Origin: Chthoniobacteraceae bacterium
Lineage (GTDB): Bacteria; Verrucomicrobiota; Verrucomicrobiia; Chthoniobacterales; Chthoniobacteraceae
NCBI GenBank assembly: GCA_031409655.1
Contig: JANNXQ010000105.1
Location: 10,387-74,386 of the forward strand
Length of the DNA: 64,000 bases
Direction: 5' to 3'
The notes beneath the pieces are model-generated. The model saw only the letters and a program-made list of their open reading frames with translations. It was not told the origin of the DNA and did not search any database. The position numbers and the translations under genes are program-made. Shown piece after piece: positions 1,065 to 39,600 of the stretch. Positions within the stretch are counted from its first letter, which is position 1, and each line of letters starts with the position of its first letter.

Positions 1065-1080
1065 TGGCATACGCGATGCT
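1065..1080 (+). promoter_or_regulatory. Putative sigma54 (-24/-12) promoter
   Basis: TGGCATACGCGATGCT (GG-N10-GC), ending 20 nt before the ATG at 1100. Confidence 0.5.
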
Positions 1081-19308: not shown

Positions 19309-20715
19309 CTACGCGAAGATCTCCTTCACCACGCGGCCATGCACGTCGGTCAGGCGGAAGTCGCGGCCGGCGTAGCGATAAGTGAGCTTTTCGTGATCGA
19401 GGCCGAGCAGGCCGAGGATCGTGGCGTGCAGGTCGTGGACGTGGACGGGATTTTCCACGGCCTTCGCCCCGTAGTCATCGGTCGCGCCGTAGCTCAGGCC
19501 GCCGCGCACGCCGCCGCCGGCCATCCACATGGTGTAGCCTTTCGCATTGTGATCGCGTCCGTCGGCACGCTTGCCATCGGGGGTGCGTCCGAATTCTCCG
19601 CCCCAGAGCACCAGCGTGTCGTCGAGCAGGCCGCGTTGTTTGAGGTCGGTGAGGAGCGCGCCGATTGGCTGATCGGTCGCGCCGCAATTCTTCGTCAGCG
19701 CGCTCTTCAAGTTCTGATGCTGATCCCAGCCGCCGTGGCAGACCTCGATGTGGCGCACGCCGGCTTCGGCGAGGCGACGGGCCATGAGGCACTGGCGGCC
19801 AAAATTATCCGACTGCCCGCGACCGATGCCGTACATCTCGAGCGTGGCTTTGGATTCCGTGGTGAGGTCCATCACGCGCGGCACTTCGGTCTGCATGCGG
19901 AAGGCGAGTTCGTAGCTCTGGATCACGCCTTCGACTTCGGCGTTGCCGTTGCTCGCGGTGAGGAAGTCGCGATTCATCGCCTGCACCAGATCGAGTTGCT
20001 TGCGCTGTTCGCCGCCCTGCATGTCGGGGTTGCGAATATTCTCGATGCTCGCGGTGCCGCCGCCGTCCTTCTGCGCGCCAAGCCGCGTGCCTTGATAGAT
20101 GGCGGGGAGAAAGGCGCTGCCGTAATTCTGCGCGCCGAACTGAATCGGCGGCGCGATGGTCACGAAGCCGGGCAGGTTTTCATTCTCCGTGCCGAGCCCG
20201 TACAGCGTCCACGCGCCGAGGCTGGGCCGCACGAATTGCGCGCTGCCGGTGTGCAGTTGCACGAAGGCCTGCGGATGATTCGGGATGTCCGTGTTCATCC
20301 CGCGCAGCAGGCACAGGCTGTCGGCGTGCTTGGCGACATTCGGGAAAAGCTCCGAGATCCACAGCCCGCTCTGGCCGTGCTGCGCAAAGGTGAAGGGCGA
20401 GCCTTGGAGTTTCGCGCCGCCGCCCTTCGAGGGGCCGGGCTTGCCGTCGTCTTCAGTGAGCTTCGGCTTGTAGTCGAAGGTGTCCTGATGCGCCGGGCCA
20501 CCTTGCATGCAGAGGAAGATAACGCGTTTCGCCCGCGGCGGGAAATGCGGAGCGCGCGGTGCGAGCGGGCTCTTGCTCTCGGCGGCGGCGAGTTCAGTCG
20601 AGAGGGCCTTGAAAGCGAGCCAGCCGAAGCCGGCGGAAACCGTGCGGAGTAGATCGCGGCGGGTGAGGGCGCTGGCGGTCACGCCGGAGCATTCGTAGGG
20701 AAGGATCGAGTTCAT
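19309..20715 (-). CDS. DUF1501 domain protein (sulfatase-like fold, Tat-like signal)
   Basis: LTRRDLL, AKRVIFLCMQGGP, ARRLAEAGVR, WDQH, GEFGRTP, GRDH. Confidence 0.93.
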   Translation of the reverse strand: MNSILPYECSGVTASALTRRDLLRTVSAGFGWLAFKALSTELAAAESKSPLAPRAPHFPPRAKRVIFLCMQGGPAHQDTFDYKPKLTEDDGKPGPSKGGGAKLQGSPFTFAQHGQSGLWISELFPNVAKHADSLCLLRGMNTDIPNHPQAFVQLHTGSAQFVRPSLGAWTLYGLGTENENLPGFVTIAPPIQFGAQNYGSAFLPAIYQGTRLGAQKDGGGTASIENIRNPDMQGGEQRKQLDLVQAMNRDFLTASNGNAEVEGVIQSYELAFRMQTEVPRVMDLTTESKATLEMYGIGRGQSDNFGRQCLMARRLAEAGVRHIEVCHGGWDQHQNLKSALTKNCGATDQPIGALLTDLKQRGLLDDTLVLWGGEFGRTPDGKRADGRDHNAKGYTMWMAGGGVRGGLSYGATDDYGAKAVENPVHVHDLHATILGLLGLDHEKLTYRYAGRDFRLTDVHGRVVKEIFA

Positions 20716-20743
20716 GGTGATGGCAGATGGCAAATGGCAGAGG

Positions 20744-23452
20744 TCAGCGCAGGTAGCGGAATTCGGCGCAGGCGAAGAAGGCCTGGCAGAAGGTGGCCCA
20801 GGTTTGTTCGTTGGCAGCGGAAGGGTTCGCGGCGCGGATCAAACCTTCGCCGTCGGCGTTCAGGTATTTTTCGGCGCGGGTGCGCTCGGCGGCGGTGGCC
20901 GGGCGGCCAAGGGCAAGCAGGTGGGCGTAGTCGATGCGCTTGGCCTCGGCGATCGGCGCGGTGAGCACGCGCTTCGCCATCGCGGTGGCCTGGGTGCGGA
21001 CGAAGGAATTGTTCATCAGGTAGAGTGCTTGCGATGGGACGTTCGTCACGTCGCGTTCGGCGACGACGAGGCTGGGCTCGGCGAAGTCGAAGATATCCAG
21101 GACTTCGGGCACGAAGTCGCGAATGACGGGCAGATAAACGCTGCGCTTGGTGGTCTCGTAGTTGGTGAAGGACTCGGGACGGATGCCGCGACCGATGTAG
21201 CCGTCGCCGATCGCCGCGACCGCCGAAGCCTTCGCGGGCACGAGATCGAGATTGCCGCTCACGGCGAGGATCGAGTCGCGAATGGCCTCCGCGTCGAGCC
21301 TTCGCGGAGCGGCGCGCCAGAGCAGGCGATTGTCGGGATCGGTCTCCATCGCCGTGCGATCCACAGCGCTGCTGAGCTGGTAGGTGCGGCTGAGGACGAG
21401 CGAGCGGACGAGCTTCTTCACGCTCCAGTCTTCGCGCATGAATTGCAGCGCGAGCGCGTCGAGCAATTCGGGATGGCTCGGCTTCTCGCCCGTTGCGCCG
21501 AAATTATCCGGCGTCCGCACGAGGCCGTCGCCGAAGAGTTGCATCCAGAGGCGATTTACGGCGACGCGCGCGGTCAGCGGATTCGAGGGCGACGTGAGCC
21601 ACTGCGCGAGTTCGAGCCGTCCGCTGGCGTTGGCGGGAATGCCTGGGGCCGCACCGTGAACCATCACTTGCACAAAGCCGCGCGCCACCGTCTCCGCGGG
21701 CTGCTCGAGCTCGCCGCGCACCAGCACGCGGGCATCGCTGGGCTGGCCGTCGCGCACGCCCATGGCCTGCGGGACGCCCGGTGCAGGCGCTTCGGTTTTC
21801 GCCTGCTCACCGCGCTTCTTTCCCTTCTTATCCGGCGCGCCGCCGGTGCCGAAACGCTCGGCGAGCTTCGCATAAGCCTCCGCCCTTTTACCCTCGGGAA
21901 GATTCTTGAGTTGCGCCGCTTTCTTCGGATCGCGCTCGGCGAGTCGCTTGAGCAATTGCTCGTAGTCTGGACGCGCGGCAGGCGCAGCCGGAGAGGCCAC
22001 GGGCTCCTGACCTTTCCCGGCATACCGCGCGGCAAGGGCCTGCTTTTGCGAGTCCGACAAGTTCTTGAGCCGCTCGGCCACCTTCGGATCGCGGGCGGCC
22101 ATGCGCTTCAGCATGTCGTTCGCATTCGCGGACTGCTCCGCCGCCGCGGGAGGCTGCGGGGTGGCCGCTGCCGGCTGATCCTTCGTCACGAGTGGGAGCA
22201 GCGACGTGCCATTCTTGTTCTTGTTCGCGGCCTTGCCGAAAGTCGTGCCACCCGTGCCGAAGAGCGTGTCGGTGCTGCGGAAGATGCCGGCGACGGCGTA
22301 GTAATCCTTCTGCGGGATGGGATCGAACTTGTGATCGTGGCAACGCGCACACGCCACCGTGACGCCGAGCACCGCGCGGGTCGTGGTGTCGATCTGCTCG
22401 TCGATCACATCCATGCGGAATTGCTCGCGATTCTTTTCATTGAGCCCCTTCGGCCCGACCGCGAGGAAACCGGTGGCGACGATGTGCTCGTTGCGTTCCG
22501 TGTCGTCCTTGTGCGGCAGAAGATCGCCCGCCACCTGCTCGCGGATGAATTGGTCGTAAGGCTTGTCCGCATTCACCGCCGCGATCACGTAATCGCGATA
22601 CCGCCACGCTTCCGGCATGGTGAAGTTCCGCTCCCGCCCGGTGCTCTCCGCGTAGCGCGCGACATCCAGCCAGTGCCGGCCCCAACGCTCGCCGAATTGC
22701 GGCGAGGCGAGCAGCCGATCCACGACTTTCGCCAGCGCGCCGGGCGAGCGATCCGCGAGGAAACTCTCGATCTGCTCCGGCGTCGGCGGCAGCCCAATGA
22801 GATCGAAATACACGCGCCGAATGAGCGCCCGCGGATCGGCATCGGCCACTGGCTTGAGTCCCTTCGCCTCCTGCGCCGCGCGGATGTGCTTATCCACCTC
22901 GGTGCGCGGCCACGCGGTGTCTTTCACCTTCGGAGTCGGCGCAGCTTTCGGTGCCTGGAAGGCCCAAAATTCCTTCCCCTTCTCAATGTCCCATTCCTTC
23001 TTCGTCACCTTCGCCGCCTTGCCGTCGCGCGGATCGGGCGCGCCCATCTGCACCCACTTTTCAAAGTTCGCGATGACTTCGTCCGAGAGCTTCCCGCCAT
23101 CCTTCTCTGGCGGCATCCGCAAGTCCTTGTCCTCCCACTTCAGCGCCGCGATGAGCAGGCTCTCCTTGAGATCGCCCGGCACCACCGCGTGCCCCGATTC
23201 GCCGCCCTCGCGGATGCCCTCGCGCGTGTCGAGCAACAGCCCGCCCTTCACCTTCTCCGAATCCGCCGAGTGACACTTGTAGCACTTCTCCGCGAGCACC
23301 GGCCTGATGTGCTTTTCGAAAAATTCCGCCTGTGCGGCAGTCAGCGCCGTCGCGGGTTTCACGGAGGTGTCCGCGCTGATCGCCGCCAAGGCGAGCGGCA
23401 CTCCTGGCAGGGCGAGGGCCAATCCGAAACTGAGAGCAAGAGAGGGGCGCAT
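20744..23452 (-). CDS. Planctomycete cytochrome c / DUF1549 / DUF1553 (PSD1) protein
   Basis: CYKCH, WLDVARYAES, CARCHDHKFD, ARVAVNRLW, HPELLD. Confidence 0.94.
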   Translation of the reverse strand: MRPSLALSFGLALALPGVPLALAAISADTSVKPATALTAAQAEFFEKHIRPVLAEKCYKCHSADSEKVKGGLLLDTREGIREGGESGHAVVPGDLKESLLIAALKWEDKDLRMPPEKDGGKLSDEVIANFEKWVQMGAPDPRDGKAAKVTKKEWDIEKGKEFWAFQAPKAAPTPKVKDTAWPRTEVDKHIRAAQEAKGLKPVADADPRALIRRVYFDLIGLPPTPEQIESFLADRSPGALAKVVDRLLASPQFGERWGRHWLDVARYAESTGRERNFTMPEAWRYRDYVIAAVNADKPYDQFIREQVAGDLLPHKDDTERNEHIVATGFLAVGPKGLNEKNREQFRMDVIDEQIDTTTRAVLGVTVACARCHDHKFDPIPQKDYYAVAGIFRSTDTLFGTGGTTFGKAANKNKNGTSLLPLVTKDQPAAATPQPPAAAEQSANANDMLKRMAARDPKVAERLKNLSDSQKQALAARYAGKGQEPVASPAAPAARPDYEQLLKRLAERDPKKAAQLKNLPEGKRAEAYAKLAERFGTGGAPDKKGKKRGEQAKTEAPAPGVPQAMGVRDGQPSDARVLVRGELEQPAETVARGFVQVMVHGAAPGIPANASGRLELAQWLTSPSNPLTARVAVNRLWMQLFGDGLVRTPDNFGATGEKPSHPELLDALALQFMREDWSVKKLVRSLVLSRTYQLSSAVDRTAMETDPDNRLLWRAAPRRLDAEAIRDSILAVSGNLDLVPAKASAVAAIGDGYIGRGIRPESFTNYETTKRSVYLPVIRDFVPEVLDIFDFAEPSLVVAERDVTNVPSQALYLMNNSFVRTQATAMAKRVLTAPIAEAKRIDYAHLLALGRPATAAERTRAEKYLNADGEGLIRAANPSAANEQTWATFCQAFFACAEFRYLR

Positions 23453-23656
23453 GGGGTGAAATAGAATTAGTTGTTAAACAGCGGGGGCGGCGGCGATTGG
23501 GACAACCCGCTTCGCGCGGAATAGTTTCGGTGGACTTGTCCTAAATCCGCGGGGCGTCGCTATAAGAATAATGAAGAAATTCCCGGCCGCTGCGCGGATG
23601 ATTGCCTGTGCAAAGCTGGATCCCAAACCACCGCAATCGACAACAAAACCCAAGCA

Positions 23657-23959
23657 ATGATCCGTAAATCCACCCTCCTCCTCACGCTCGCAGCCTGCGC
23701 GCTCGCGCTTCCCACCGTTTCCTTTGCCGCCAAGGGCGATAAGAAAAAGGGCGACAAGGGCGCCATGATGGCCGCCAAGGGCTATGACGCGAACGCCAAT
23801 GGCAAAATCGACGGCGACGAACGCGCTGCGGTGCAAAAGGCCTTTGATGCCGACAAAGGCGGTGCCCTGAAGGCCTTTGACACCAATACCGACGGCAAGC
23901 TCGACGATGCCGAACTCGACGCCATCAAGGCCGGCGGCAAGAAGAAGAAAAATAAGTAA
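23657..23959 (+). CDS. Small secreted EF-hand protein
   Basis: Signal peptide; DANANGKIDGDE and DTNTDGKLDDAE loops. Confidence 0.85.
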   Translation: MIRKSTLLLTLAACALALPTVSFAAKGDKKKGDKGAMMAAKGYDANANGKIDGDERAAVQKAFDADKGGALKAFDTNTDGKLDDAELDAIKAGGKKKKNK

Positions 23960-24057
23960 CCAGACGGTGCTGCTGGGTACTGGCCGGGCCGAAAGTGCGA
24001 GCCGCCAGTATCCAGCATCGCGTTGGTTGGAAAGGAGCGTATCCTTTCACCCGTCCC

Positions 24058-24609
24058 ATGAGTCCCGAGCCAGATCCCGCACTCGACCGCCAGAAACAAC
24101 TGATGCTGCTCATGACGCAGCATCAGCGGCGCGTCTTCTCGTATATCTACACGCTCGTGCCGGATCGGCATGATGCGGAAGATATCCTCCAGGAGACGTG
24201 CCTCGTCGTCTGCGAAAAGTTCGACAGCTTTCGGCTCGGGACGGACTTTGCGGCGTGGGCTTGCCAGATCGCTTACTGGCAGGTGCGCGCAGCGCGAACG
24301 AAGTATGCGCGCTCGAAGGTGATCTTTAATCAAGAGGTGCTCGATGCGGTAGCGCATACCGCGGCGTCGCTGGGGAATGAAGTGAGCGCGCGCCACGAAG
24401 CCCTGGCGCGCTGTCTGCAAAAGCTGGCGCCCCGAGATCGGGAGTTGGTGCTCACGCGCTACGAACAGGGGCGTGGGGTCGAGGAGGCGGCGCGTTGCTC
24501 GGGAAGGTCGCTGGAGGCGGCTTACAAGGCGCTCTCGCGGATTCGCAAGCTGCTCTTTGATTGCGTAACGCATCAGCTTGAACCAGATGCCGCTGCCGGA
24601 CGGAACTGA
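24058..24609 (+). CDS. ECF sigma-70 factor (Rhodopirellula/Verrucomicrobium type)
   Basis: DAEDILQE, FAAWACQIA, CLQKL, LSRIRKLLFDC. Confidence 0.92.
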   Translation: MSPEPDPALDRQKQLMLLMTQHQRRVFSYIYTLVPDRHDAEDILQETCLVVCEKFDSFRLGTDFAAWACQIAYWQVRAARTKYARSKVIFNQEVLDAVAHTAASLGNEVSARHEALARCLQKLAPRDRELVLTRYEQGRGVEEAARCSGRSLEAAYKALSRIRKLLFDCVTHQLEPDAAAGRN

Positions 24610-24628
24610 GCGGGCAAACTGTAAGATA

Positions 24629-26245
24629 ATGATGAATCTGACGGATAACGAAGTGCTGGAACTCAGTGCGCTCTGTCACGCGCTGGTGGATGGAAACATC
24701 AATGACCCAGATCGCGTGCGGCTCGAAAGATGGCTGGCAGAATCCGAGGAGGCGCGAGCTTACTACGTGCGCATGATGGGCCTCTCGGCCAGCCTGTGCA
24801 GCTACGCCAGCGAGGTGCAGTCCGAGGCCCCGGCGCCGGTCTTGAAGAGTAAGATCGTGCGTCCGGCGGCGTGGCGCTGGGCCATCGGCACGCTCGCTGC
24901 GGCGGCCGCCGTGGTGCTTGCCTTCCGCCTGGGAGGGGTGAGTGAGCGGCTCTTCTCGCCGCCCGTGGTCCTCGCGGAAGGGGAGAGTGAAGACACCGTG
25001 GCGCGACTTTCCGGGGCCAAGGATTGTGAGTGGATCGGCGAGGCGCCGAAGATGGGCGATGAACTGCGGCGCGCGCAGCGGGTGCAACTCGCCGCGGGTT
25101 TGGCCGAGATTACTTTTGATAGCGGAGCGCGGATCACGGTTGAGGGGCCGGCCTCGCTCGATCTGACTTCGGCATGGGAGGCCGCGCTCCATCACGGCTC
25201 GCTGCGGGCGAGTGTGCCCGCGGAGGCGATCGGCTTCCGCATCTCGAATCCCGAAGTCGATGTGGTCGATCTTGGGACGGAATTTACCATGGTGGCCGAT
25301 GCCGCCGGCGGCACAGAGGTCTATGTGGTGGAAGGGGCCGTGGAAGTCGCGGCGCGGACGGGCGGCGAGCAGGCGCGGGATCCGGTGGTGCTGCGGGAAA
25401 AGCAGGCGCGGCGCTTTGCCAAGCACGGCGGTTCCGAGGCCAGTGATCGTCCGCAGAAGATCGATGGGCGGGTGCGGAAAGTGGCGCTCGACCGACTCAC
25501 GCGTCCGGCCACCTATCTGCACTGGAGCTTCGATGAAACGAGCGGTGCGGTCGCCCAGGGGCGCTCCGCCAGCGCAGGCCTGGAGACATTTGATGCCCAT
25601 CTCGTCGGTGGCGAAGGTGGTTCGCTCGACGCAGTGTGGACGGACGGGCGGTGGCAGGGAGCGCTGTCCTTCGATGGGAAGGTGCAGGCCAGGGCGGTGC
25701 TGCCGATCGGGAGTCCAAAGGGTGGACGGACGATCGCCTTTTGGGTGCGCACTTCGGAGGAGGGGAAATTTCCCGAAGTCGGCTCGCTGCTCTCATGGCC
25801 GCTCGGGGGCAAGGAACCCCGCGTCGCGGAACTCGCGTGGAATCGGAATCCGAATCACGGCCCACTCGGGGCGTTGCGGACGCGGGTCGGACGCGGGAAC
25901 TTCGTCGGTTCGACACCGGTGCGCGACGGGCGCTGGCATCACGTTGCCGTCGTCTTTGTGCCGAAGGCGAAGCCCGACGGGACGCAACAGATCAAGCACT
26001 ACATCGACGGTCGGCTCGACGTCCTCGCTTCGAAGCACCATGGCAAGCGCCATAGTGTGGAGGATGACGCCGCCATCGCCGCCCCCGGCGATGCGCTCTG
26101 GATTGGTGCCGGTGCGCCCGCGGATCGCTTCCGTGGCCAGTTCGATGAGCTTTTCATCGCCGACCGCCCACTCACGCCCTATGAGATCCGCCACCTGATC
26201 GCCCACAATACGCCGGCGATGACGGAGATGCTCGCGGCCGAATAG
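24629..26245 (+). CDS. Anti-sigma factor with FecR and LamG-like domains
   Basis: N-terminal anti-sigma helix, TM segment, VVDLGTEF (FecR), WSFDE, DGRWHHVAV, FRGQFDE. Confidence 0.88.
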   Translation: MMNLTDNEVLELSALCHALVDGNINDPDRVRLERWLAESEEARAYYVRMMGLSASLCSYASEVQSEAPAPVLKSKIVRPAAWRWAIGTLAAAAAVVLAFRLGGVSERLFSPPVVLAEGESEDTVARLSGAKDCEWIGEAPKMGDELRRAQRVQLAAGLAEITFDSGARITVEGPASLDLTSAWEAALHHGSLRASVPAEAIGFRISNPEVDVVDLGTEFTMVADAAGGTEVYVVEGAVEVAARTGGEQARDPVVLREKQARRFAKHGGSEASDRPQKIDGRVRKVALDRLTRPATYLHWSFDETSGAVAQGRSASAGLETFDAHLVGGEGGSLDAVWTDGRWQGALSFDGKVQARAVLPIGSPKGGRTIAFWVRTSEEGKFPEVGSLLSWPLGGKEPRVAELAWNRNPNHGPLGALRTRVGRGNFVGSTPVRDGRWHHVAVVFVPKAKPDGTQQIKHYIDGRLDVLASKHHGKRHSVEDDAAIAAPGDALWIGAGAPADRFRGQFDELFIADRPLTPYEIRHLIAHNTPAMTEMLAAE

Positions 26246-27142: not shown

Positions 27143-27625
27143 TTAGGCGTCCTTGCGCTGGAAGAGGGCCTGCACGTCGGTGGCGTCCATGTCGCTGAGG
27201 TCGAGGCCAAGGGCGCCAGTGCGCGCGGCGGCGATTTGGATGCGGTCGTGCAAGGTCCGGGCGGCGGGGGTGGCGAAGTATTTCAGCGAGCCCACCGTGA
27301 CGTGCGTGGGGAAGACGAGGACGAGGAGCGAGTTCTCATCCACGTTGATCATCAGCGTGGAGAAGTTTTCTCCCTGTTGATACATGCTGGTGAAGTTCGA
27401 TTCGTTGACCAGGGAGGCCATAAACTGCACGGCGTTGTAAGCGTTTGAGCCGAGGGTGGCGAAGGTGGTGGTATCGACCTGCGACGTGTCGCCGGCCTGC
27501 TGGATCAGATAGCCGGCCTTCTCCACGAGGAGCGCGAGGCTGGCTTCGCTGCGCTCGAGGAGTTCCCGGAGCACGGTATCGACGTGATCCACGTCTTCCT
27601 GAGTAAGTTGAGGAAACTGGCCCAT
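27143..27625 (-). CDS. mglB: MglB-like roadblock/LC7 protein (putative GAP)
   Basis: ALLVEKAGYLI, FTSMYQQGE, LVLVF...GSLK; adjacent to mglA. Confidence 0.88.
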   Translation of the reverse strand: MGQFPQLTQEDVDHVDTVLRELLERSEASLALLVEKAGYLIQQAGDTSQVDTTTFATLGSNAYNAVQFMASLVNESNFTSMYQQGENFSTLMINVDENSLLVLVFPTHVTVGSLKYFATPAARTLHDRIQIAAARTGALGLDLSDMDATDVQALFQRKDA

Positions 27626-27637
27626 GGAGGGTCTGGG

Positions 27638-28249
27638 TTACTTCCGAACGCCGTCGTTGAGAAATTTGTTGAGCAGCATGCGGGTGATCATATTGAGCGA
27701 CTCAAAGACCCCCTCCGTTTTACTGGCGGATGCCTCGAAGGAGGGCATCTGCACTTCCCGGTTATTGAGGACGAAGTCAAGATACTCGACGGGTGCTGCA
27801 TCCGGCAGATCCCGTTTGTTATACTGCATGACGCACGGGATGTCTTCGATACTGAGGTTCAGCGTCTTGAGGTTATCCTCGAGATGCTTAAAGGTCTCGA
27901 TGTTCTCTTCCATCTTGTCGTATTGGCTGTCCGCCACGAAGACGATGCCATCGACGCCGCGAAGCACGATCTGGCGGGTGGCATTGTAGATGACCTGCCC
28001 GGGCACGGTGAAGAGCGCGAACTTGGTCTTAAAGCCTTTGATGGCGACGGCCTCGAGCGGGAAGAAGTCGAAGAAAAGAGTGCGGTCGCTCGAGGTGGCG
28101 AGGGACGTGAGCTTCCCTTTGGCATCCTGGTTGGGCACTTGCACATTGGCATGGATTTGCTCCAGGTTGGTGGTCTTGCCACTCTTCGCGGGACCGTAAT
28201 AGACGATCTTAACCTGAAGTTCCTTCGTTGCTTGGTTGATAATTGCCAT
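27638..28249 (-). CDS. mglA: MglA small Ras-like GTPase
   Basis: KIVYYGPAKSGKTTNL, DRTLFFDF, TVPGQV.Y, LRGVDGIVFVADSQ, QYNKRDL. Confidence 0.96.
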   Translation of the reverse strand: MAIINQATKELQVKIVYYGPAKSGKTTNLEQIHANVQVPNQDAKGKLTSLATSSDRTLFFDFFPLEAVAIKGFKTKFALFTVPGQVIYNATRQIVLRGVDGIVFVADSQYDKMEENIETFKHLEDNLKTLNLSIEDIPCVMQYNKRDLPDAAPVEYLDFVLNNREVQMPSFEASASKTEGVFESLNMITRMLLNKFLNDGVRK

Positions 28250-28267
28250 GGGCGTGGGCGGGTTCGG

Positions 28268-29947
28268 TTACTTTTGGACTTGGCGGGAAAGTTCGGCGGC
28301 GACGAGTCGCAGCTCATTCCACGGGAGAGAGGCGCCGGGCTTTCCGAGCACGGCGAAATAGACGGTGCCGAGCCTGTAAATGAGGCAATGCGCGCCGCGG
28401 GTGGTGAAAAGAAGGTCATCGACTTCGCCGAGTTTCATCTCGCCGGCGTATTGATTGAGGCGGCCGAAGATCTGCGGGAGGAAGGCGGAGATGGTCTCGG
28501 CATTCACGCCGTCGGGGAGCTGGTGCGCGACCTGGAAGCCTTCCTGCAAGGCGACGACGGCACCGGCGACTCCGGGGAGACCGACGACGCGGGCAATGAG
28601 TTCGGCTGGCGTCCAGGAATCCTTGTCTGGCTCGCCAAAGGCAGCGCCGACAGCGGACTTCGGAGGCGCGGCGGGAGTTTCGGAAACTGGGGCTTCTGCC
28701 ACGGGATCGGAGGCCGGTTCGGGGAGGGCTGCTTCTTCCGCTGGGGTCTCTGCGGGAGCCTCGATCACTGGCGCAAGCGCGAGCGGAGCTTCGGCAGCGG
28801 GTGCTTCTACGACCGCCGCTTCAGGAGCTTCAGGAGTTGCGGGTGCGAGAGGTGCGACTGGCTCAGGCTCGGACTTTCGAGCGTTGAAGAGCGCCGGAAT
28901 GCTTTCGTCAACGAGCGCGGACTTGCGGCCCGTCGTGGGGCGCTTCGTCTGCGCCAGGAACGCGGGGGCGATGACTTTCAGCGGCAGGACGATTTCCGTT
29001 GTTGGATCGACGGCGGACGTTCCCGCGATGGCCGGCGTGAGCCACGCCCGGATTTGTCCCCAGGTGAAAGCGATCTTCCCGCGAGCCATCCCACCATTGA
29101 GTTCGGACGTGGGGAGAGACACCGTGGTTTGCGGATCGAGATCTTTGAGTTCGGCGACGATGGCTTCCGGCCATTTCGCGGAGACCGTGTTCACCGGGAG
29201 AACGAGTGCGGTGCCCGGTGCGACAGGCGCGGTGGGTGCGACGACTTCCGCGGGCTTGCTCTCGGGTGCGGGGGCTGGGGTGGCCTTCGCGATCGCGGGC
29301 TTCTGGGGTTCCCGCTTGGCGGCGGACTGCTTGAAGTCAGTCGGCGGCGCGACGATCCGCATCGCCGAGGGCGCAGCCTCGGGCTGCTCCAGCGGTGCCA
29401 TATCGGCTGTGGGGTCGATCTCCAAAACCTCGGCGGGCTTCGGCTTCTGGGCGGCGTTGGGAGTCGAAGGTGGCGGTGCGTTGCGGGAATTAAAGACGGC
29501 GAGATCTTCGGGCGGTGTCTCCACAGAGCGTTGATCAGTGCGACGCTTGAAGGACTTTGGCTTGACGTGTTTGAAAACTTCCGCGAGCGGCACCTCGACC
29601 ATCCGCTTATCCCCGGTGGGGAGCGGCTTGAACATCCCAGCGGGCGCCTGGCGATGCAGTGAGGCGAGCGACATCCGCACGACGCCGTTGGCGAGTTGCT
29701 TGACGATCGTCTGGATCGGCAGCACCACCGTCGCCGAGGGAGCGGGCTCCTTGAGGATGAGGGCCCGAAGATCCTCGGGAAGTCGCGCCACGATGGCTGG
29801 CAGCGAGAGTTTCGCGACTTCGACTTTGTTCATCTGGATCGCGGACTCGTACTGAGCCTGCGGGATCGGGGGCGGCTCGACTGCGGCCAGTGCGTTGTCT
29901 TTCTTGGGAGGTGCCTTGCCGAAGAGTTTCTTAAAGATGGTGAGCAT
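28268..29947 (-). CDS. Multidomain protein: duplicated unknown domain, Pro/Ala linkers, C-terminal roadblock/LC7
   Basis: C-terminal LPGVAGAVVALQEGFQVAHQLP...MKLGEV...FAVLG; first gene of the mgl operon. Confidence 0.82.
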   Translation of the reverse strand: MLTIFKKLFGKAPPKKDNALAAVEPPPIPQAQYESAIQMNKVEVAKLSLPAIVARLPEDLRALILKEPAPSATVVLPIQTIVKQLANGVVRMSLASLHRQAPAGMFKPLPTGDKRMVEVPLAEVFKHVKPKSFKRRTDQRSVETPPEDLAVFNSRNAPPPSTPNAAQKPKPAEVLEIDPTADMAPLEQPEAAPSAMRIVAPPTDFKQSAAKREPQKPAIAKATPAPAPESKPAEVVAPTAPVAPGTALVLPVNTVSAKWPEAIVAELKDLDPQTTVSLPTSELNGGMARGKIAFTWGQIRAWLTPAIAGTSAVDPTTEIVLPLKVIAPAFLAQTKRPTTGRKSALVDESIPALFNARKSEPEPVAPLAPATPEAPEAAVVEAPAAEAPLALAPVIEAPAETPAEEAALPEPASDPVAEAPVSETPAAPPKSAVGAAFGEPDKDSWTPAELIARVVGLPGVAGAVVALQEGFQVAHQLPDGVNAETISAFLPQIFGRLNQYAGEMKLGEVDDLLFTTRGAHCLIYRLGTVYFAVLGKPGASLPWNELRLVAAELSRQVQK

Positions 29948-29973
29948 GCGATCGCGGTTTCAGCGTTGTCGCT

Positions 29974-29989
29974 AGCAGGGTCAGTGCCA
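29974..29989 (-). promoter_or_regulatory. Putative sigma54 promoter of the mgl operon
   Basis: Minus strand TGGCACTGACCCTGCT (GG-N10-GC), 27 nt upstream of the ATG. Confidence 0.55.
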
Positions 29990-30029
29990 CTCCTGCTTCC
30001 GTGGAAAAACTCCCGGCACTCAGCAGACG

Positions 30030-30045
30030 TGGCGTGTCTTGTGCT
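30030..30045 (+). promoter_or_regulatory. Putative sigma54 promoter of the response-regulator operon
   Basis: TGGCGTGTCTTGTGCT (GG-N10-GC). Confidence 0.4.
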
Positions 30046-30123
30046 AATCTCACTGGCCCGCAAGGGGCCGCCGCAAAACGCGCCACCGCCCGCAAAGCCT
30101 TTCAGAATCAAGAATCACAGCCC

Positions 30124-31179
30124 ATGCCAGCCCGCCACAAGATCCTGATCCTCGACGATGAACATGACATCCTCGAGATCTATCAAGAGATCCTCGCCCG
30201 CATTCCGAGCCAGCCGGAGATTCACACGGCGGACTCCGGGCCGCGGGCGCTGGCGCTCCTCGAAAGTGAGACTTTCAATCTGCTCCTCGTCGATCTGCGC
30301 ATGCCGACGATGGATGGCTTCCAAGTGCTGACCATCGTGCGCCGCCGCTTCCCGACGCTGCGGGTGGTGGTGATGACCTCGGCGCAGGATGAGCAATTCC
30401 GGGCCCGCGCTTATGCCATGGGCATCGACCTCTATCTGGAGAAGCCGAAGACCGGAAAGGAGATCATCAACTTTGTCGATTGCATCGAGTCGATGCTCGA
30501 GCGCGAAGATGGGGGTGGCTTCCGCGGGGTGCAAAGCAAGACCCTCATGGACATCATCCAGCTTGAGTGTCTCACGCAGAGTTCCTCGATCTTGCGGATC
30601 GCGAGCGGTCCTGGGGAAGGGCGCATCTGGCTGACCAAGGGTGAGATCATCGACGCGGCGACGGGTGAGTTACTTGGGCGCGAAGCTTTCCTCGAGATGT
30701 TGCGTTGGAAGTCGGGGAGCTTTGAAATTCTGCCGAGTGATTCGCCGCGCCCGCGGACGATCTTTGTGAGTTACGAGAGTCTGCTCATGGAGACAGCGCA
30801 GACGATCGACGAGACGAAGGTTGACGAGGTCGCGGTTGCGGATGTGGACCCCAGCTCGCTCGCGAATCTCTCCCGCTACAAGGGCGTGCAGTTCGTCGTC
30901 GCGGTGCAGGGCGGCGAACCCATGAAATTTGACCACTGGGCGGCGGAGAATCCGGAACGGATGGCCGCCTGGATTCAGCAAACGACGCGCGCCTTTCAGA
31001 CCCTCGGGGATCGCCTGGAAGCGGGCCAGCTCGAAACCCTCGAAGCGCTCGGCGCGCAGCGTCATGTGGCGCTCGTCTGCGCCGATGAAAATGCGCTCGG
31101 CGTCGGCTTTACCCGCTCCGCCAGCCTCACCCACATCCGTGAAACCATGAAGCAGATCGAAGCCAAATGGGCGTGTTAA
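30124..31179 (+). CDS. Response regulator: REC + DUF4388 (PATAN-like) + roadblock-like C-terminus
   Basis: ILILDDE, VDLRMPTMDG, MTS, KP; then GFRG..LMDIIQL..GRIWLTKGEIIDA..W.SGSF..ESLLME. Confidence 0.9.
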   Translation: MPARHKILILDDEHDILEIYQEILARIPSQPEIHTADSGPRALALLESETFNLLLVDLRMPTMDGFQVLTIVRRRFPTLRVVVMTSAQDEQFRARAYAMGIDLYLEKPKTGKEIINFVDCIESMLEREDGGGFRGVQSKTLMDIIQLECLTQSSSILRIASGPGEGRIWLTKGEIIDAATGELLGREAFLEMLRWKSGSFEILPSDSPRPRTIFVSYESLLMETAQTIDETKVDEVAVADVDPSSLANLSRYKGVQFVVAVQGGEPMKFDHWAAENPERMAAWIQQTTRAFQTLGDRLEAGQLETLEALGAQRHVALVCADENALGVGFTRSASLTHIRETMKQIEAKWAC

Positions 31180-31883
31180 AACCTCTCGCCCGCACTGTCA
31201 AACCGCACCGGATCGAGCGTCTGCCGAGCGGCTGTTTTACGCTGCATCGTGGCGGGATCATCGTGGCCTCCACGCTGCCTTCCACTTTTCCGCAACAGAA
31301 GATGCTGGAGATCGGGCGCGCCGTGCTCGCCGCGTTTAAGAGCGCGGAGGAGATCGAACTGCCGCTCACCGATCTGCACATTCACTTCAGCGGGATGCTC
31401 GTCACGGCGCGGGAGTTACGCGGCGGCACCCTCATTTTCATTCAGCCCGTCACGCTCCAGCTCCCATCCAGCCTCACTCCGCCCGCCATGCATCATAAGA
31501 ACCTCGACGAATTCGTCCTGCACCTCGAAAACTACATTGAGTGCTGGAAGCAGTTTAATCACTACGTGGGCCTGGCCCGGGAAAAGAAACATACCAAGGA
31601 CGACGAGGCCCAATTTCTCGAAGTGAAGAGCATCATCGCGCAGGGGCTGGAGGCGATCTGCGCCTCGGTGGAAAAAGGCGGACCGCGCAAAGAGGAAGTG
31701 CATTCGCTCTTTGGCAATGCTCCTAGCTTGCGCCATCTCGCGGAGGTCGAGGAAGCCATGACGACCGTCGAGGGACAGTGGCACAAGGTCTATCTGACGC
31801 TGCAATCCTTGCTCGGCCAACTCAAGGTCCAGCAGAATAAGAACGAACGCGGGATCGGCTGGAGCTTATTCGGGAAGCGTTAG
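31167..31883 (+). CDS. Hypothetical protein: roadblock-like N-terminus fused to a helical domain
   Basis: GCFTLHRGGIIVASTLP...ARELRGGTLIF, then MHHKNLDEF...LENYIECWKQF...WSLFGKR; possible internal start at 31488. Confidence 0.7.
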   Translation: MGVLKPLARTVKPHRIERLPSGCFTLHRGGIIVASTLPSTFPQQKMLEIGRAVLAAFKSAEEIELPLTDLHIHFSGMLVTARELRGGTLIFIQPVTLQLPSSLTPPAMHHKNLDEFVLHLENYIECWKQFNHYVGLAREKKHTKDDEAQFLEVKSIIAQGLEAICASVEKGGPRKEEVHSLFGNAPSLRHLAEVEEAMTTVEGQWHKVYLTLQSLLGQLKVQQNKNERGIGWSLFGKR

Positions 31884-31908: not shown

Positions 31909-32148
31909 TCAGTGGCAGCCGCAGCCGGTGCCGCAGGAGCCACCGCTGCTTTTCATCTGTCGCTGCATGTCGGCGTGCTTCGGCGGATGGCCTTTGCCCA
32001 TGTAGCCGAGGCCGCCGGTGATCACGCGCCGGATGGGTTCGCCGGTTTCCGGATGTTTTGTGAGAGCCGCGTCTTTCATGCTCTGCCGGAACTCAAAGCT
32101 GCGCTTGGGCTTCTTGGCGTCGGTGGTTTCGTAGAGGTAGGTGGCCAT
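31909..32148 (-). CDS. FmdB-family zinc-ribbon-like protein (Cys-less ribbon variant)
   Basis: MATYLYE...FEFRQSMKDAALTKHPETGEPIRRVI; C-terminal CGTGCGCH. Confidence 0.8.
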   Translation of the reverse strand: MATYLYETTDAKKPKRSFEFRQSMKDAALTKHPETGEPIRRVITGGLGYMGKGHPPKHADMQRQMKSSGGSCGTGCGCH

Positions 32149-33683: not shown

Positions 33684-36600
33684 ATGCCTCGCAAGTTCAC
33701 GCTCTTCGCCGCCGTTCTGGCCATTTCGACGCTCGCGGTGCTGCTCCAGCCAAAGCGGACGCCGAGCGCGCCGGCGCATCCGCTCCCCGAAGGCGCGCCG
33801 CTCGCGGTCGCTGCTCCCGAGCCCGTCCGCGTGGTGCCAGCCGCCGCGTCTCGGATCGCGGCCCAATTCCCGGTGGCGGTTCCCGCGAAAGCGGAGCCCT
33901 TCACCGAATGGACCGCGCGTTTTCTCACCACTCCAGCGCAGGATCGCCCGGCGCTCGTCGCCGAGGGCGTGCAGCGCGCGGCGGCCCGGCGCCCCGTCTT
34001 TAAGAAGCTCATCCAGGAAGATCCGCGCCGTGCGCTCGCCGAGGCCGTGCCGATGGTCGTGCGGCAGCAGCTTCCGGCGGAAATCCTCACGCAGCTCGAG
34101 CAGCGCGTGAATGGCGTCGGGGCCCTGCGGGTCTATCAAGGCGTGCCGGCGGAAGCGGCACCGACTCCAACGAAATCGCTGACCGTCCGCAAAGTGGAGA
34201 TGCGTGATGGTGCGACGTATCAGGCGCACGTCTATGGGCGGCGCGCGGAGACGGTCCTCTGGACGCCGGGCGCGTCGCTCAATGGCGTGGCGATCGATAC
34301 GGAGTTTGCGGTCAATGAGGATCCCTTCCGTCAGCTGGAAGTCGGCGAAAAGCCAGATGCTGCGAAGCCGATCGCCTCGCTGTGTCCGGTCTCGGGAAAG
34401 AATGCCGTGGACGCGGAGCACGCGAGCGAGCCGGTGGCGGAGACCACCCCGGCGATCGAGACCGCCACGGAGACGCTCTTTTTCTGCGATGGGTCGCACA
34501 TCACTTTGTATAAAGGGACGCTGATCATGGCGGAGGGCGGCAGTGGCGGGGCTTTTGGGTACACGGGTATCCTGCCGGCGGTGCCGACGCCATCCATTGG
34601 CGTGGTGCGGGTGCTTTTCCTGCCCGTCACCTATCTCGACCAAAACGCAGTCCCTTGCACCGAGGCCAAGGGGTATCAACTCCTGCGCGACGTCAGTGAT
34701 TTTTATGCGAAGTCCTCCTTCGGCAAGCTGACCCTCGTGCCGGTGGTGACGCCGCCGATCAAGCTCCCCCACACCGAGGCCTGGTACATCCAGCGCGACA
34801 CCAGCAATGGCGGCGACATCGACGGCGAGGGCACGTCCCACAACCACGCGCGCACCGAGGCCCGGCGGATGGGCTTTGACGACGCCAACTACGATTGCGT
34901 GGTCATGCGGCACGAAGGTGGCCCCGGCGCGTATGGCGGACTCGGCGGTGGGAGCAGCGTCTGGGTGCGGGGCGACAGCGTGGCCACGCTGGCCCACGAG
35001 ATCGGCCACTGCTTCGGTCTCGCGCACGCCAATTTCTGGGACACCGCGGGCACCAGCGCGATCGGCAATGGCACGAATGGCGAATACGGCGACCCCTACG
35101 ACAACATGGGCAGCGGCGGCTTCCCCGCGGCGCAGTACAATGCTCAGGCCAAGAACCAAACCAAGTGGTTGCCAGACGCCTTCATTCAGCGCGTCACGCA
35201 GTCCGGCATGTATCGCATCTACGCCTTTGATCAGACCTCGCTCGATCCCTCGAACCGCTACGCGCTGACCATCGTGAAAGACGCGCAGCGCACCTACTGG
35301 GGCGAAGTGCGCTCGCTTTTCACCACGAACCCGTGGACGGAAAAGGGCCTGATCCTCGGCTGGCGCTTCCCGAGCGGCGGCGGCAACAACATCCAGCTCA
35401 TCGACACCACGCCCGGCACCCCGGCAGGCAATAGCAGCAAGGAAGACGCGCCCATTTCCCTCGGCAGCACCTTCTCGGATTTCGAGAGCGGCATCCACAT
35501 CACCACGGTGAATGTGAACGCGTCCCCGCGCTACGTGGAGGTCGTGGTTAATGTCGGAGATTTCCCCACGAACCAAGCGCCCACGCTGGCTCTCGCAGCT
35601 TCGACGGATGTCGTGCCTGTCGGCGGCACCGTGACTTTCACCGCCACGGCCAGCGATCCGGACAGCGATCCGCTGGCCTACGGCTGGCAGCATTTCGGGG
35701 ATACGAATTACAAAGTCGTCGAGGCCAGCGGCCCGGTCATCACCCGCACCTTCACCGCCGCCGGAACCTATGTCGTCACTTGCACCGCCAGCGATATGAA
35801 GGGCGGCACCGCCACGCGTTCGCGGCTCATCACGGTGGGCAGTGGGAACGGGCGTTTCACCATCAGCGGGCGCATCACGCAGCTCGGCCAGGGTCTGGCG
35901 GGCGTGACCGTGAAGGCGAACGGCGCCAACGGCGTCGTCACCGATAGCGACGGCTACTACGCGGTCCCGAATCTCACCGCGAATACCTACGTGCTGTCGC
36001 CGCTGCTTTACGGCTACGCGTTTGGCGAACTTTTTGAAAACAACGTGTCCGTCGGACCGAGCTTCACCGGCGCGAATTTTGTCGCCGCGGAGGACTCCGC
36101 GGTGACGATCGCCGCGTCCCTGCCGACGGCGAACGAACTCGCGCCCGTGACCGCGGGTCGCTTCACCTTCACCCGCACCGGCGACATCTCGCAGACGCTC
36201 TTGGTGAATGTGAACACCGTGCAAGGCAGCGCGACGAAGACGACCGACTACACGCTCACGCCGGATTACGTCACGGCCAGTCAGGGCTTCAGCAGCTTCA
36301 TGATTCCCGCGGACTCCGCGACGCTCGATGTGGTCGTGACGCCGGTCGTGGACACCGCAGCGGAAGGCCCCGAGACCGTGACGCTCCAGGTCGGCCCCGG
36401 CATCGGCTACGTGATCGGCGGTCAAGCCAGCGCGACCGTCACGATCGCGGATGACGACACCACTCTGCCCAAGGTCTCCGTCTCCTTCGCGCCCAGTTCC
36501 ATCGGGGAAAACTCCGGTTCACTGGCGGTCCTCACTTTCAGCGCCGCCGCGCCCGTCGCCGCGAATCTCACGATCAACTACACGGTCACCGGCACCGCGA

Positions 36601-39600
36601 GTTCCGGCACGGATTTCACCCCGCTGCCCGGCACCGCGACCATCCTCGCGAGCGCCTCGTCCACGACGGTGAATCTCGCGCCAGTGAATGACGCGTTCTC
36701 CGAGCCGCTCGAGACGGCGAAGGTGACGATCACGGGTAATGCGGCCTATATCATCAGTCCGCAGGCGTCGAATGTGACGCTGAACATCGTCGATGACGAT
36801 GTGCAGGTGGTGAATGTCACGGCGAGCGATCCGACGGCCACCGAGGTGGATCTCACCGTGCCCGGCGCGGCGGCCGACACCGGCACTTTCCTCGTCACGC
36901 GCAGCGGCGACATCGCGCAGCCGCTCACTGTTTACTACGCCGTCTCGGGCACGAATGGCTCGGGCAATGCCGCGCTCCACGGCGTGGACTACGAGGCGCT
37001 GCCCGGCGTGCTGCTCATCCCGGCTGGCCAGGCCAGCGCGAGCGTCACGATCCTGCCGCGCTTCGATGGGATCGGCGAAGGGAATGAAAACGTGGTCCTG
37101 CAACTCGGCGCGGGGCCGACGAACTACGTCCTGGGCGCGAGCGCGAGTGCCGCACTGACCATGGCGGATGCGGCGGGCGACAAACCCTCGGTGGAAGTGA
37201 TCCCGCTGACCAGCGCGACGGAAGGCGGGAGCAACGGCACCTTCCGCATCTCCGCGCGTGGCGCCGGCACTGGCACGCTCGTCGTGCCCTTTTCCCTCTC
37301 CGGCTCGGCCACCGCCGTCACGGACTTCACCGTGACCACGGGCGCCACGATCGCCTTTAACTCCGGCACCCTCACCGGCACCGCGACTTTCACCCTCGCC
37401 AATGGCAATCCGGTGACGATCGACATCCCGATCGTCGCGGTGAACGACGCCGTGGCCGAGCCACTCGAGACTGTGGTGCTCAGCCTCCCGCCTGATCCGG
37501 CCTTCCAAACCTACGCCCCCACCGCGAGTGCCAGCATGTGGCTGCGGGATAACGACCAGCCGACGATCTACGTGGACACGCAGGTCGGCACGAACGCCGC
37601 GACGATCAACACTTTCACCGAAGGCGCGACGACCTGGCCGGTGAAATTTTACCTTTCGCGCACCGGTGGCACCGTGGCGGACGTCGTGGTGAACTACACC
37701 CTCGGCGGCACCGCGACGAGCGGCCTGGATTACACCGCACTCTCCGGCACGGTGACGATTCCGGCCGGTTCTCTCGGCGTGGATGTGCCGCTCGCGATCA
37801 TCAATGATACGGATTTCGAAGGCACGGAGACCATCGAGTTCACGCTCGCGCCAGGGAGCTACGCGGCGGGCAACTCCGCGACGATGTACCTCGCGGACAA
37901 TGAAACGAGCACGCAGACCGTGGCCTTCACCGCGAATAGTAGCCGCGCGCTGGAGAATGCAGGCACGGCGGCGGTCTCGGTGAGGCTGGCCTCGATCGCG
38001 ACCGCGCCGGCTTCCGTGGAATACATCGTGGACACCGGCACCCGCGCCGCGACCACGGCCACCTACAACACGCTCCTGAATCCGCAGTGGGTGCGGCTAA
38101 AACGGACGGGGAGTTCGTTTGCCTTTGATTACTCGATGGATGGCGTGACGTGGACTTCGCGGCGCGGGGCCGTGACCATCGGGATGAGTAGTGCCTCTTA
38201 CCTCGTGGGCCTCGCCGTCGGCTCGACCACGAGCGGCACCCCGGCCACGGCGACGATCGACAATGTGAGCATCAGCGGCCTGAGCGCAGGCGGGAGCATG
38301 GGCGCAGTCGTCTCGGCAAACATCGGCGCGCCGAGTCCCGCAGGCAGCAGCGCGGAAGCCGCCGGCATCTATACCGTCACCGGCGGCGGCACCGGCATCT
38401 CAGAGACCACCGCCACGGACGCATTTCGGTACGTTTACTTCCCGATCTCAAATTCCGCGAACTGCACCTTGGTCGCCCGGATTTCTTCCGTCACGAGCAC
38501 GGATGCGAACGCCGTCGGCGGAATCATGGTCCGCGAAACGACCGCGGCGAATACGCGCCACGCCTTCCTCGGCGCGCGGCCTGTTGGCACCAGCGAATAC
38601 ATCTACCGCAGCGCCGCCGCGGCGAATGCGACGAGCGCCACTTCCACCGCGCTCATCCTGCCCTACTGGACGCGCGTCGAGCGTGCCGGGAGTACCTTCA
38701 AAGCATGGCGCTCGCAGAACGGCACGACCTGGACGCAACTTGGCGCCACGCAGACGATGGCCATGTCCGCGGAATTGCTCGCCGGGCTCGCAGTCTCGTC
38801 CCGCGCCGATGGCACACTTTCCACCGCCGTCTTTGACAATGTCACCTTCTCCACGCCCCCGGTTGGTCCGCTGGAAGGTCGCACGGTCGGCTTTGTGAAC
38901 GAGCAGGGCAGCGACAGCGTCGCGGGCGGCGTTTACACGGTGCTCGGTTCGGGAGCTGGCTTGAACAGCGGGAGCCAGGACGAGTGTCATTTCGTGGCCG
39001 CGCCGGTGGTGGGGGATTTCACCCTCACCGCACGCGTGGTCTCGCAGAGCGGCGGCGCGGCGACGCAGGAGGCCGGCGTGATGATCCGCGAAAACGCGAG
39101 CTACCGCAGCCGCATGATCCACTCCGGCGCGCAGGGCACCTCGGGTCTGGAGATGGTGGCGCGCACTTCGACGTTCACCAATGCCTTCGGCGCTGGCGTG
39201 GATCACACCCTCACTACCGGCGTGCTCAATTTCGCGATCGGCGAGCAGACCAGGGACATCACCTTCGAGATCGTCGATGATAACATCAACGAACCCAACG
39301 AGGACCTCGCCATCGTCCTGCGCAATCCCAATGGCGCGCAACTCGTCGGCACGACGCAGCACATTTTCACGATCGAAGACGACGATCTCCCACCAGCGAA
39401 TCCGTTCGTCGCCTTCGCCGCGCCGACCTCAAGCATGAGTGAAAGCGCGGGCTCGGGCAGCATCCTCGTGAGCCTCACCGCACCGGCCGGGGCAGCGGTC
39501 ACGGTGGACTACGCGGTCGTCGGCGGCACCGCGGCAACGCCCGCCGACTTCACACTCGCGAGTGGCACGCTCAGCTTTGCGCCCGGCGAAAGTGTGAAAG

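Follow-up and report, generated by a model that had tools for sequence, protein, structure and literature searches.

A five-gene MglA GTPase locus of Chthoniobacteraceae with four roadblock-type domains and a receiver-PATAN regulator, a candidate switch for type IV pilus assembly

The DNA analysed here, a 64,000 nt window of contig JANNXQ010000105.1 from a Chthoniobacteraceae bacterium (GCA_031409655.1), carries at positions 27143 to 31883 a compact five-gene locus built around the small GTPase MglA. An earlier note on the same DNA had proposed an undescribed polarity switch. Our data point to a Group 1 MglA/MglB module which is syntenic with a receiver-domain regulator, and this regulator is predicted to form a roadblock heterodimer with the product of the fifth gene. 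That the module is a phosphorylation-gated switch setting where or when type IV pili assemble is a reading in which our confidence is evenly balanced.

The five open reading frames lie in two divergent groups separated by a 176 bp spacer, three genes on the minus strand (scaffold-mglA-mglB) and two on the plus strand (the regulator followed by gene 5); coordinates and strands given in the earlier note were reproduced. All five are single copy in the genome, if receiver domains that are unrelated and three more matches to DUF4388 are disregarded. Eighty loci of close relatives were fetched, and the 64 with at least 4.3 kb of upstream DNA were counted. The full layout is present in 55 of them, including the cultured Chthoniobacter flavus Ellin428, so that the synteny in relatives, whose absence would have refuted the earlier note, is borne out and above chance. 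A survey of 121 genomes of the family, in which the MglA clade was counted at 65% identity or more and 6 genomes with divergent copies alone were excluded, leads to the same picture of genes kept together. This MglA clade was found in 73 genomes, the helical domain of gene 5 likewise in 73, and both in 70; three genomes hold the MglA clade without the helical domain and three the helical domain without the MglA clade. The regulator operon is restricted in distribution. Its four-helix domain occurs in 2 of 301 high-quality genomes of a phylum-wide sample, this genome included, a sample which under-represents the families relevant to the operon.

The mglA gene (27638..28249, minus strand) encodes a 203 aa single-domain Group 1 Ras-like GTPase with an intrinsic Arg finger. 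Group 1 is defined by the intrinsic Arg-Thr, TVPGQ and NKxD (PMC4316618; this and the other papers are cited for extracts). The window's MglA shows GPAKSGKTT, DRTLFFDF (R56, T57), TVPGQ and NKRD, i.e. an Arg next to the G2 Thr, TVPGQ in G3, GxxxxGKT in G1 and NKxD in G4, and a homologue of mglB lies within four genes, here adjacent with a gap of 12 bp. These motifs including R56-T57 are invariant in 58/58 homologues, and the best PDB matches are MglA of Thermus (E 8.5e-60) and Myxococcus (E 6.7e-57). The earlier observation that the intrinsic Arg-Thr and the Gln of PGQ are kept was correct, and by its sequence MglA appears catalytically intact. The mglB homologue (27143..27625, minus strand) codes for a 160 aa roadblock protein with a C-terminal tail as in Myxococcus xanthus MglB. 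It scores 35 bits for Pfam Robl_LC7 (cut-off 23), aligns to M. xanthus MglB (PDB 6izw_B, E 1.2e-12) with an ungapped core and including the tail, and its top 8 PDB rows are all MglB; the Thermus-specific NCBIfam equivalog cut-off is missed with 53 of 200 bits. The order mglA before mglB, emphasised in the earlier note, is present here but not unique, as Minf_2415 has the same order. The Verrucomicrobia entry of the survey in PMC4316618 (2012 genomes), as extracted, is a Group 5 MglA alone and is already ordered mglA-mglB.

The scaffold (28268..29947, minus strand, 559 aa) consists of an N-terminal amphipathic segment, two copies of a repeat domain, Pro/Ala-rich linkers and, at its C-terminus, a roadblock domain. 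The basic amphipathic segment (aa 1-11, 29915..29947) is a candidate membrane anchor whose pattern is kept across homologues: under a strict filter on hydrophobic moment 68 of 88 are retained, and of the remaining 20 most look similar by eye. Amphipathic termini of this kind are known as anchors of MinD-type proteins, and by this analogy together with the conservation, the segment may bind the membrane. Copy 1 of the repeat domain covers aa 39-155 (29483..29833) and comprises four beta-alpha units in two homologous halves, which align to each other with a probability of 95.7% (E 1e-8); copy 2 covers aa 244-355 (28883..29218) and is recognised with a profile E of 3.8e-33, the profile including this sequence. 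The domain is about 110 aa long and its AlphaFold model reaches a pLDDT (predicted local distance difference test) of 86.7. The best match among 48,161 PDB chains is at Z 2.3, Foldseek returned none at E<=0.001, no Pfam family is common to 83 members, and PDB, Pfam and Atlas gave no identity. Hence the repeat domain is a candidate new fold, whereby an absent match is no proof of one. Clustered at 50% identity, 1,732 proteins carry it; of five that were scanned, two have a C-terminal roadblock above the cut-off and one weakly. The roadblock domain of the scaffold itself (aa 449-534, 28346..28603, minus strand) passes Pfam Robl_LC7 with 27.4 bits (cut-off 23), and its family profile matches the roadblock 7f8f (E 1.2e-10). 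Two larger proteins also match the repeat domain. One of 1,465 aa (P0099) shows 10 matched stretches and no Pfam family. The other, of 2,367 aa, is encoded in this genome (C25:4954-12057, minus strand); it has an amphipathic N-terminus and a weak repeat-domain match (E 0.0018), continues as a very long coiled-coil-like region and is a candidate polar landmark.

The regulator (30124..31179, plus strand, 351 aa) joins a receiver domain (REC, aa 7-117), a DUF4388 domain (aa 140-231) and a roadblock-type domain (aa ~244-351). DUF4388 and REC are above their Pfam cut-offs with 62.5 and 83.8 bits. DUF4388 is the PATAN domain, which in Synechocystis binds PilB1 and PilC (10.1101/2021.06.11.447907, in extract). 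The REC residues D11, D12, D57 and K107 are invariant in 58/58 homologues, and by sequence the phospho-site with D57 as acceptor is intact. The C-terminus has no Pfam match, and of the four roadblocks it is the weakest by sequence. The single PDB match of its profile at E<=10 is the roadblock 7f8f (E 0.029), and hhalign gave E 3e-4 (probability 40%) to the scaffold roadblock and E 0.053 to MglB. These profile matches are weak but specific, and in the complex model described below the domain forms a strand-to-strand interface with the roadblock of gene 5.

Gene 5 (31167..31883, plus strand, 238 aa) starts 13 bp before the end of the regulator gene and encodes a fusion of a truncated roadblock protein with a four-helix protein. 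Its N-terminus has no Pfam match; the profile of the roadblock core (aa 16-97, 31212..31457) finds a single PDB match, the roadblock 7yh1 (E 8.9e-5). The AlphaFold model (pLDDT 82.8) shows a beta-beta-alpha-beta-beta-beta core with the first and last helices missing, i.e. the five strands and one helix of a roadblock core. In Foldseek, Asgard roadblocks, dynein LC7 and LAMTOR make up most of the best rows, and some longin-type adaptin subunits also appear there; the best E is 1.5e-3 and none reaches E<=0.001. VIA comparisons gave Z 11.2 to 9y6s_9g (root-mean-square deviation 3.4, 81 residues aligned) and Z 9.4 to 7f8f (3.5, 73 aligned). Checked in this way, the four roadblock domains claimed earlier are upheld to different degrees: MglB and the scaffold pass Pfam, gene 5 and the regulator are supported by profiles and models, with the C-terminus of the regulator being the weakest case.

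The pairing of the two operon partners was modelled as a complex of MglA, regulator and GTP with gene 5 as partner. The regulator/gene 5 pair scored 0.87, compared to 0.00 for the best of three controls. The mark used is reached by 116 of 157 solved pairs and 2 of 215 mismatched pairs, and it applies only roughly to our model, which was built with own alignments and with GTP included. Model runs share at least 69% of contacts, and the pLDDT of the partner is at least 70. The confident interface connects regulator residues 246-351 with residues 1-77 of gene 5, the tightest contacts running from strand 301-309 to strand 67-75. Such beta3-to-beta3 pairing is the usual geometry of roadblock dimers. 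Regulator and gene 5 are thus predicted to form a beta3-to-beta3 roadblock heterodimer, which gives the heterodimerisation suggested in the earlier note support from a model for this one pair. Because roadblock dimers have already been solved and the interface shows their usual geometry, the score may partly be due to likeness to those structures. A 1:1 complex fits the overlap of the two genes, and residues 1-15 of gene 5 need not be a membrane anchor since they lie within the interface. Direct binding of gene 5 to MglA was considered and not retained: the confident interface named no MglA residue, and with the regulator replaced the score fell to 0.00, which is not evidence against binding.

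The C-terminal four-helix domain of gene 5 (aa 108-238, 31488..31880, plus strand) ends in W-S-L-F-G-K-R and belongs to an uncharacterised family. We collected 5,047 homologues, the named ones being hypothetical proteins of Verrucomicrobiota; PDB, Pfam and Atlas gave no identity, and structure matches were to generic helical bundles alone (Z<=12.2). The earlier description of gene 5 as one roadblock-plus-helical protein is right for the window, but not for the family as a whole: the gene is fused in 51 of 71 loci and split into two in 20 (these counts include duplicates, and a frameshift probably accounts for one of the splits). Since the Met at the start of the four-helix domain survives in 51/51 fused loci, the four-helix protein may still be made on its own. 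At one locus (L161, G548:C2) a single open reading frame of ~400 aa contains three copies of the four-helix domain.

The spacer holds two outward-facing TGGC-N8-TGC motifs, back to back, which match the sigma-54 consensus (-24/-12; PMC12316311, in extract). One is located at 29974..29989 on the minus strand, 26 bp upstream of the scaffold start codon, the other at 30030..30045 on the plus strand, 78 bp upstream of the regulator start codon. Among 65 distinct intergenic regions the scaffold-side motif is found in 51 and the regulator-side motif in 32, with 0.9 expected for each in shuffles. The genome encodes rpoN, itself preceded by the same motif, and 10 enhancer-binding proteins; the motif also lies before two genes labelled by eye as pilins, one as pilC-like and one as a second REC-PATAN gene. 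A scan for sigma-70 promoters and terminators gave results at chance level. The earlier statement that no kinase is present in the window holds for its whole contig, on which no HATPase_c domain was found; 72 matches lie elsewhere in the genome. A further sigma-54-type motif is seen at ~1065-1080 (plus strand) of the window, at the gene near 1076.

Across the class, 132 of 301 genomes gave an MglA match, which in a few cases was weak. We combined 38 mglA regions, selected so as to cover the range of identities, with 27 fetched before to 65 loci, and added 2 regions around unlinked regulator operons. The scaffold is directly upstream of mglA in 60/65 loci; scaffold-mglA-mglB is the core of the module across the class. 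The surroundings of this core fall into three architectures. In 17/65 loci it follows a TPR-MshEN gene and a gene for a PilB-like ATPase on the same strand, in 7/65 the gene it faces is a PATAN gene, FHA-like at its C-terminus (label by eye), and in loci of the window type it faces the regulator operon. The PilB-like ATPase stays just under the TIGR02538 cut-off (630-672 bits vs 675.65). In a quick, unrooted MglA tree with unreliable long branches, the clade of the window comprises 25 rows (Shimodaira-Hasegawa-like approximate likelihood ratio test, SH-aLRT, 98) and holds every locus with the regulator operon.

In this family the pilB-linked copy is degenerate or lost. Three pilB-linked mglA copies (L043, L044 and L045) are long-branched and have neither the RT and PGQ motifs nor mglB. 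They still adjoin the scaffold, two of them (L044 and L045) lie directly beside pilin, pilC, pilB and pilT genes, and they are possible pseudo-GTPases. In the genome studied here, C47:31890-36310 (minus strand) groups a TPR-MshEN gene with genes for a PilB-like ATPase and for a scaffold paralogue of 586 aa; the paralogue has repeat domains, no roadblock, and no mglA after it. By its gene content this group looks like a remnant of a pilB-linked Mgl operon, and the pilB-linked mglA copy may have been replaced by a window-type unit in Chthoniobacteraceae, as far as an unrooted tree can tell. The TPR-MshEN gene is present in 70 of 73 genomes with this MglA vs 25 of 48 without, and FlhA in 16 of 73 vs 25 of 48, whereby kin are not independent in either count. 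Extracts of published work predict one Chthoniobacteraceae genome to twitch (PMC11596606) and report that Limisphaera swim by one flagellum (PMC13608581).

The pilus reading is favoured because the core is pilB-adjacent elsewhere, PATAN partners recur, PATAN binds PilB1 and PilC in Synechocystis, and the module co-occurs with TPR-MshEN and not with FlhA. A working scheme would be as follows. Sigma-54 would transcribe both operons together, along with the pilin and pilC genes. The amphipathic N-terminus of the scaffold would hold MglA at a membrane site, and MglB would turn MglA off. A kinase encoded elsewhere would phosphorylate D57 of the regulator and so alter how the heterodimer engages the MglA-MglB-scaffold unit, and either the PATAN domain or MglA-GTP would act on the PilB motor. 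The regulator/gene 5 pair could regulate MglA in the role of GAP (GTPase-activating protein) or GEF (guanine nucleotide exchange factor), and the output might be cell polarity or polar localisation.

Several results weigh against the scheme or parts of it. The regulator operon is non-adjacent to mglA in 9/64 loci. At its MglA-binding face MglB carries N64 and F68 in place of the M. xanthus residues A64 and G68, small residues that matter for GAP activity (PMC3199381, in extract). Among 36 homologues position 64 is A16 N14 C5 S1 and position 68 is F18 A13 E4 T1, and because of this variation GAP activity is likely but unproven. Pili do not need the module, since PilT is present in 118/121 family genomes with or without it and genus g9 keeps the TPR-MshEN gene (10/10) with no mglA found. 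No pilB, pilT, pilC or pilin gene was found within the flanks of up to 7 kb of the 80 closest loci, and this genome encodes 3 flagellins as well as FlhA genes. The sigma-54-type motif is missing from 14/65 regions on the scaffold side and from 33/65 on the regulator side; it also precedes many unrelated and some flagellar-looking genes (labels by eye), and of 479 matches in the genome 99 are upstream-like, many of them probably due to chance. No Frz-like input was found, as this 94.9% complete genome has no CheW.

Some of these points lend themselves to a different output, by which the MglA switch works with the regulator operon on type II-like secretion, adhesin placement, asymmetric growth or division, or a flagellum. 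Besides the lack of pilus genes near the 80 closest loci and the flagellar genes with matching promoter motifs, the PilB-like ATPase supports it, as it scores nearly as well for GspE (626 against a cut-off of 630). Moreover, outputs other than motility are described for the Actinobacterial and for further groups of MglA (PMC4316618, in extract). The pilB adjacency in the class-wide loci and the recurring PATAN partner argue against it, and a flagellum as main output is disfavoured by FlhA being rarer with the module; we regard a non-pilus output as unlikely on balance, though to be taken seriously. A parallel arrangement appears slightly less probable again. In it, scaffold, MglA and MglB would be the switch, the two neighbouring operons would be co-regulated, and the heterodimer of regulator and gene 5 would have a PATAN output of its own under phospho-control, without contact to MglA. 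In its favour, each operon has its own promoter motif, other lineages have the core triad but no regulator operon, and linkage is lost in some genomes, the operon lying 40 kb away in G366 and on a different contig in G012. On the other side, both markers are present in 70 of 76 genomes holding either, unlinked cases included, the regulator operon is confined to one MglA clade, and roadblock domains commonly serve GTPases (PMC9481161, in extract).

A neighbourhood by chance, or extra domains that are no roadblocks, is very improbable and largely refuted by the synteny, the fold matches and the canonical roadblock interface of the model. It could draw on the weak sequence matches of the regulator C-terminus and on an out-of-register hhalign of the gene 5 N-terminal profile to MglB. 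This comparison, however, is insensitive for roadblocks, failing also for the Pfam-positive scaffold roadblock (E 0.43). A more daring design, which we consider doubtful, is also conceivable. Here a membrane-anchored scaffold of new fold would present two heterodimers, regulator/gene 5 and scaffold/MglB, to MglA in a Ragulator-like platform; phosphorylation would directly flip GAP or GEF activity, the four-helix protein would be a new MglA effector, and the unit would have replaced an ancestral pilB-linked switch in Chthoniobacteraceae.

A few further observations concern related genes and the surroundings of the locus. Two of the other DUF4388 proteins of this genome (C89:10133-10855 and C188:11513-11800) have an N-terminal receiver-like region; the C89 gene shows a sigma-54-type motif and the C188 gene adjoins a pilM-like gene. 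At L109 and L112, where the usual regulator operon is not adjacent to mglA, the DNA ~3 kb downstream of mglA encodes another type of REC-PATAN protein, whose tail by eye resembles a roadblock. The genome holds 14 PilB/PilT-family ATPase matches. In genus g16, mglA, the helical domain and the TPR-MshEN gene are present in 0/17 genomes and FlhA in 15/17, and several best PilT matches fall within open frames of ~750-800 aa. In the window, the locus adjoins a small zinc-ribbon-like open reading frame (31909-32148, minus strand; Pfam Zn_ribbon_8, E 0.0015, below the cut-off), and a secreted-looking repeat protein of 2,931 aa (33684-42479, plus strand), by eye probably an adhesin or surface peptidase, is encoded further on. 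The region 19309-26245 presumably encodes a cytochrome c domain protein typical of the Planctomycetes-Verrucomicrobia-Chlamydiae (PVC) group, a sulfatase-like partner, an extracytoplasmic function (ECF) sigma factor and a FecR-like anti-sigma factor.

Work on Group 1 MglA switches has centred on Myxococcus, Bdellovibrio and Thermus. The version described here is spread through a major soil and freshwater class, uses different helpers, is contained in one locus, exists in a cultured strain and is small enough to be rebuilt from purified proteins. No paper on this locus was found in the literature searched, with subscription papers and bioRxiv supplements outside its scope. In this sense the locus is undescribed, as the earlier note had it, whereas its kind is known. 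In Chlorobi and Chloroflexi, Group 1 MglA with two MglB-like genes, PATAN neighbours and a PATAN:MglB fusion are tabulated; the same survey records REC-roadblock fusions (PMC4316618, in extract). The earlier note had not recognised DUF4388 as PATAN, nor the pilB link, the repeat domain or the promoters. What this analysis newly contributes is a model of the heterodimer, a search for the fold of the repeat domain, the promoter pair and the map of three architectures.

Compared to the M. xanthus module (MglA, MglB, MglC, RomR, RomX, RomY, SgmX), the locus shares a Group 1 MglA with Arg, a tailed MglB, extra roadblock proteins, a receiver-domain input and a likely type IV pilus output. It differs by the order mglA-mglB, by having all parts in one locus in a genome lacking CheW, by the roadblock-tipped scaffold with its candidate new repeat domain and by the REC-PATAN-roadblock regulator. 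This regulator does not have the architecture of RomR, a REC with neither PATAN nor roadblock, a comparison limited to the locus. RomX, RomY and MglC are absent from the PDB rows of the locus profiles and models, where no queries for them were used, so they are not excluded. MglB and MglC of M. xanthus are homodimers (PMC10329633), in contrast to the heterodimer predicted here, and the roles of RomRX are debated (PMC13408092). Extracts describe for Methylacidiphilum an uncharacterised pair of mglA and mglB together with a fusion of globin and roadblock (PMC4476040), and for Snodgrassella three mglB genes tied to pili (PMC11112851). Closer in composition are the Chlorobi and Chloroflexi loci of the PMC4316618 supplement, with Group 1 MglA, more than one roadblock, PATAN and the PATAN-roadblock fusion. 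The window's locus differs from these by its four roadblocks, two unannotated families and another phylum, a comparison made without sequences. The Actinobacterial conservon, with its Group 2 MglA and a histidine kinase in its locus, is different again, as here no HATPase_c is encoded on the contig and MglA has TVPGQ and R56 instead of GTPGQ without Arg finger. Cyanobacterial PatA-type regulators (PixE, PixG, LsiR) likewise join DUF4388/PATAN to REC, and their PATAN binds PilB1 and PilC. Their order is an N-terminal PATAN and a C-terminal REC, whereas in the window the order is reversed, a roadblock is appended, and the link is to a GTPase instead of a chemosensory array.

Heteromeric roadblock regulators are a recognised theme (PMC9481161). 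The solved prokaryotic roadblocks covered in the extracts are homodimers, and heterodimers are typical of eukaryotic GTPase platforms (PMC10933270, PMC10329633). If true, a heterodimer of bacterial roadblocks coupled to a receiver domain would be informative on the origin of such platforms. With Ragulator (LAMTOR1-5) the locus shares four roadblocks, heterodimerisation as far as predicted here, truncated roadblocks without the last helix and an extended scaffold, here putatively membrane-anchored, serving a small GTPase (PMC10933270). Here one heterodimer is predicted (regulator/gene 5) instead of two and MglA has no roadblock of its own, so the likeness is an analogy of design with no orthology shown.

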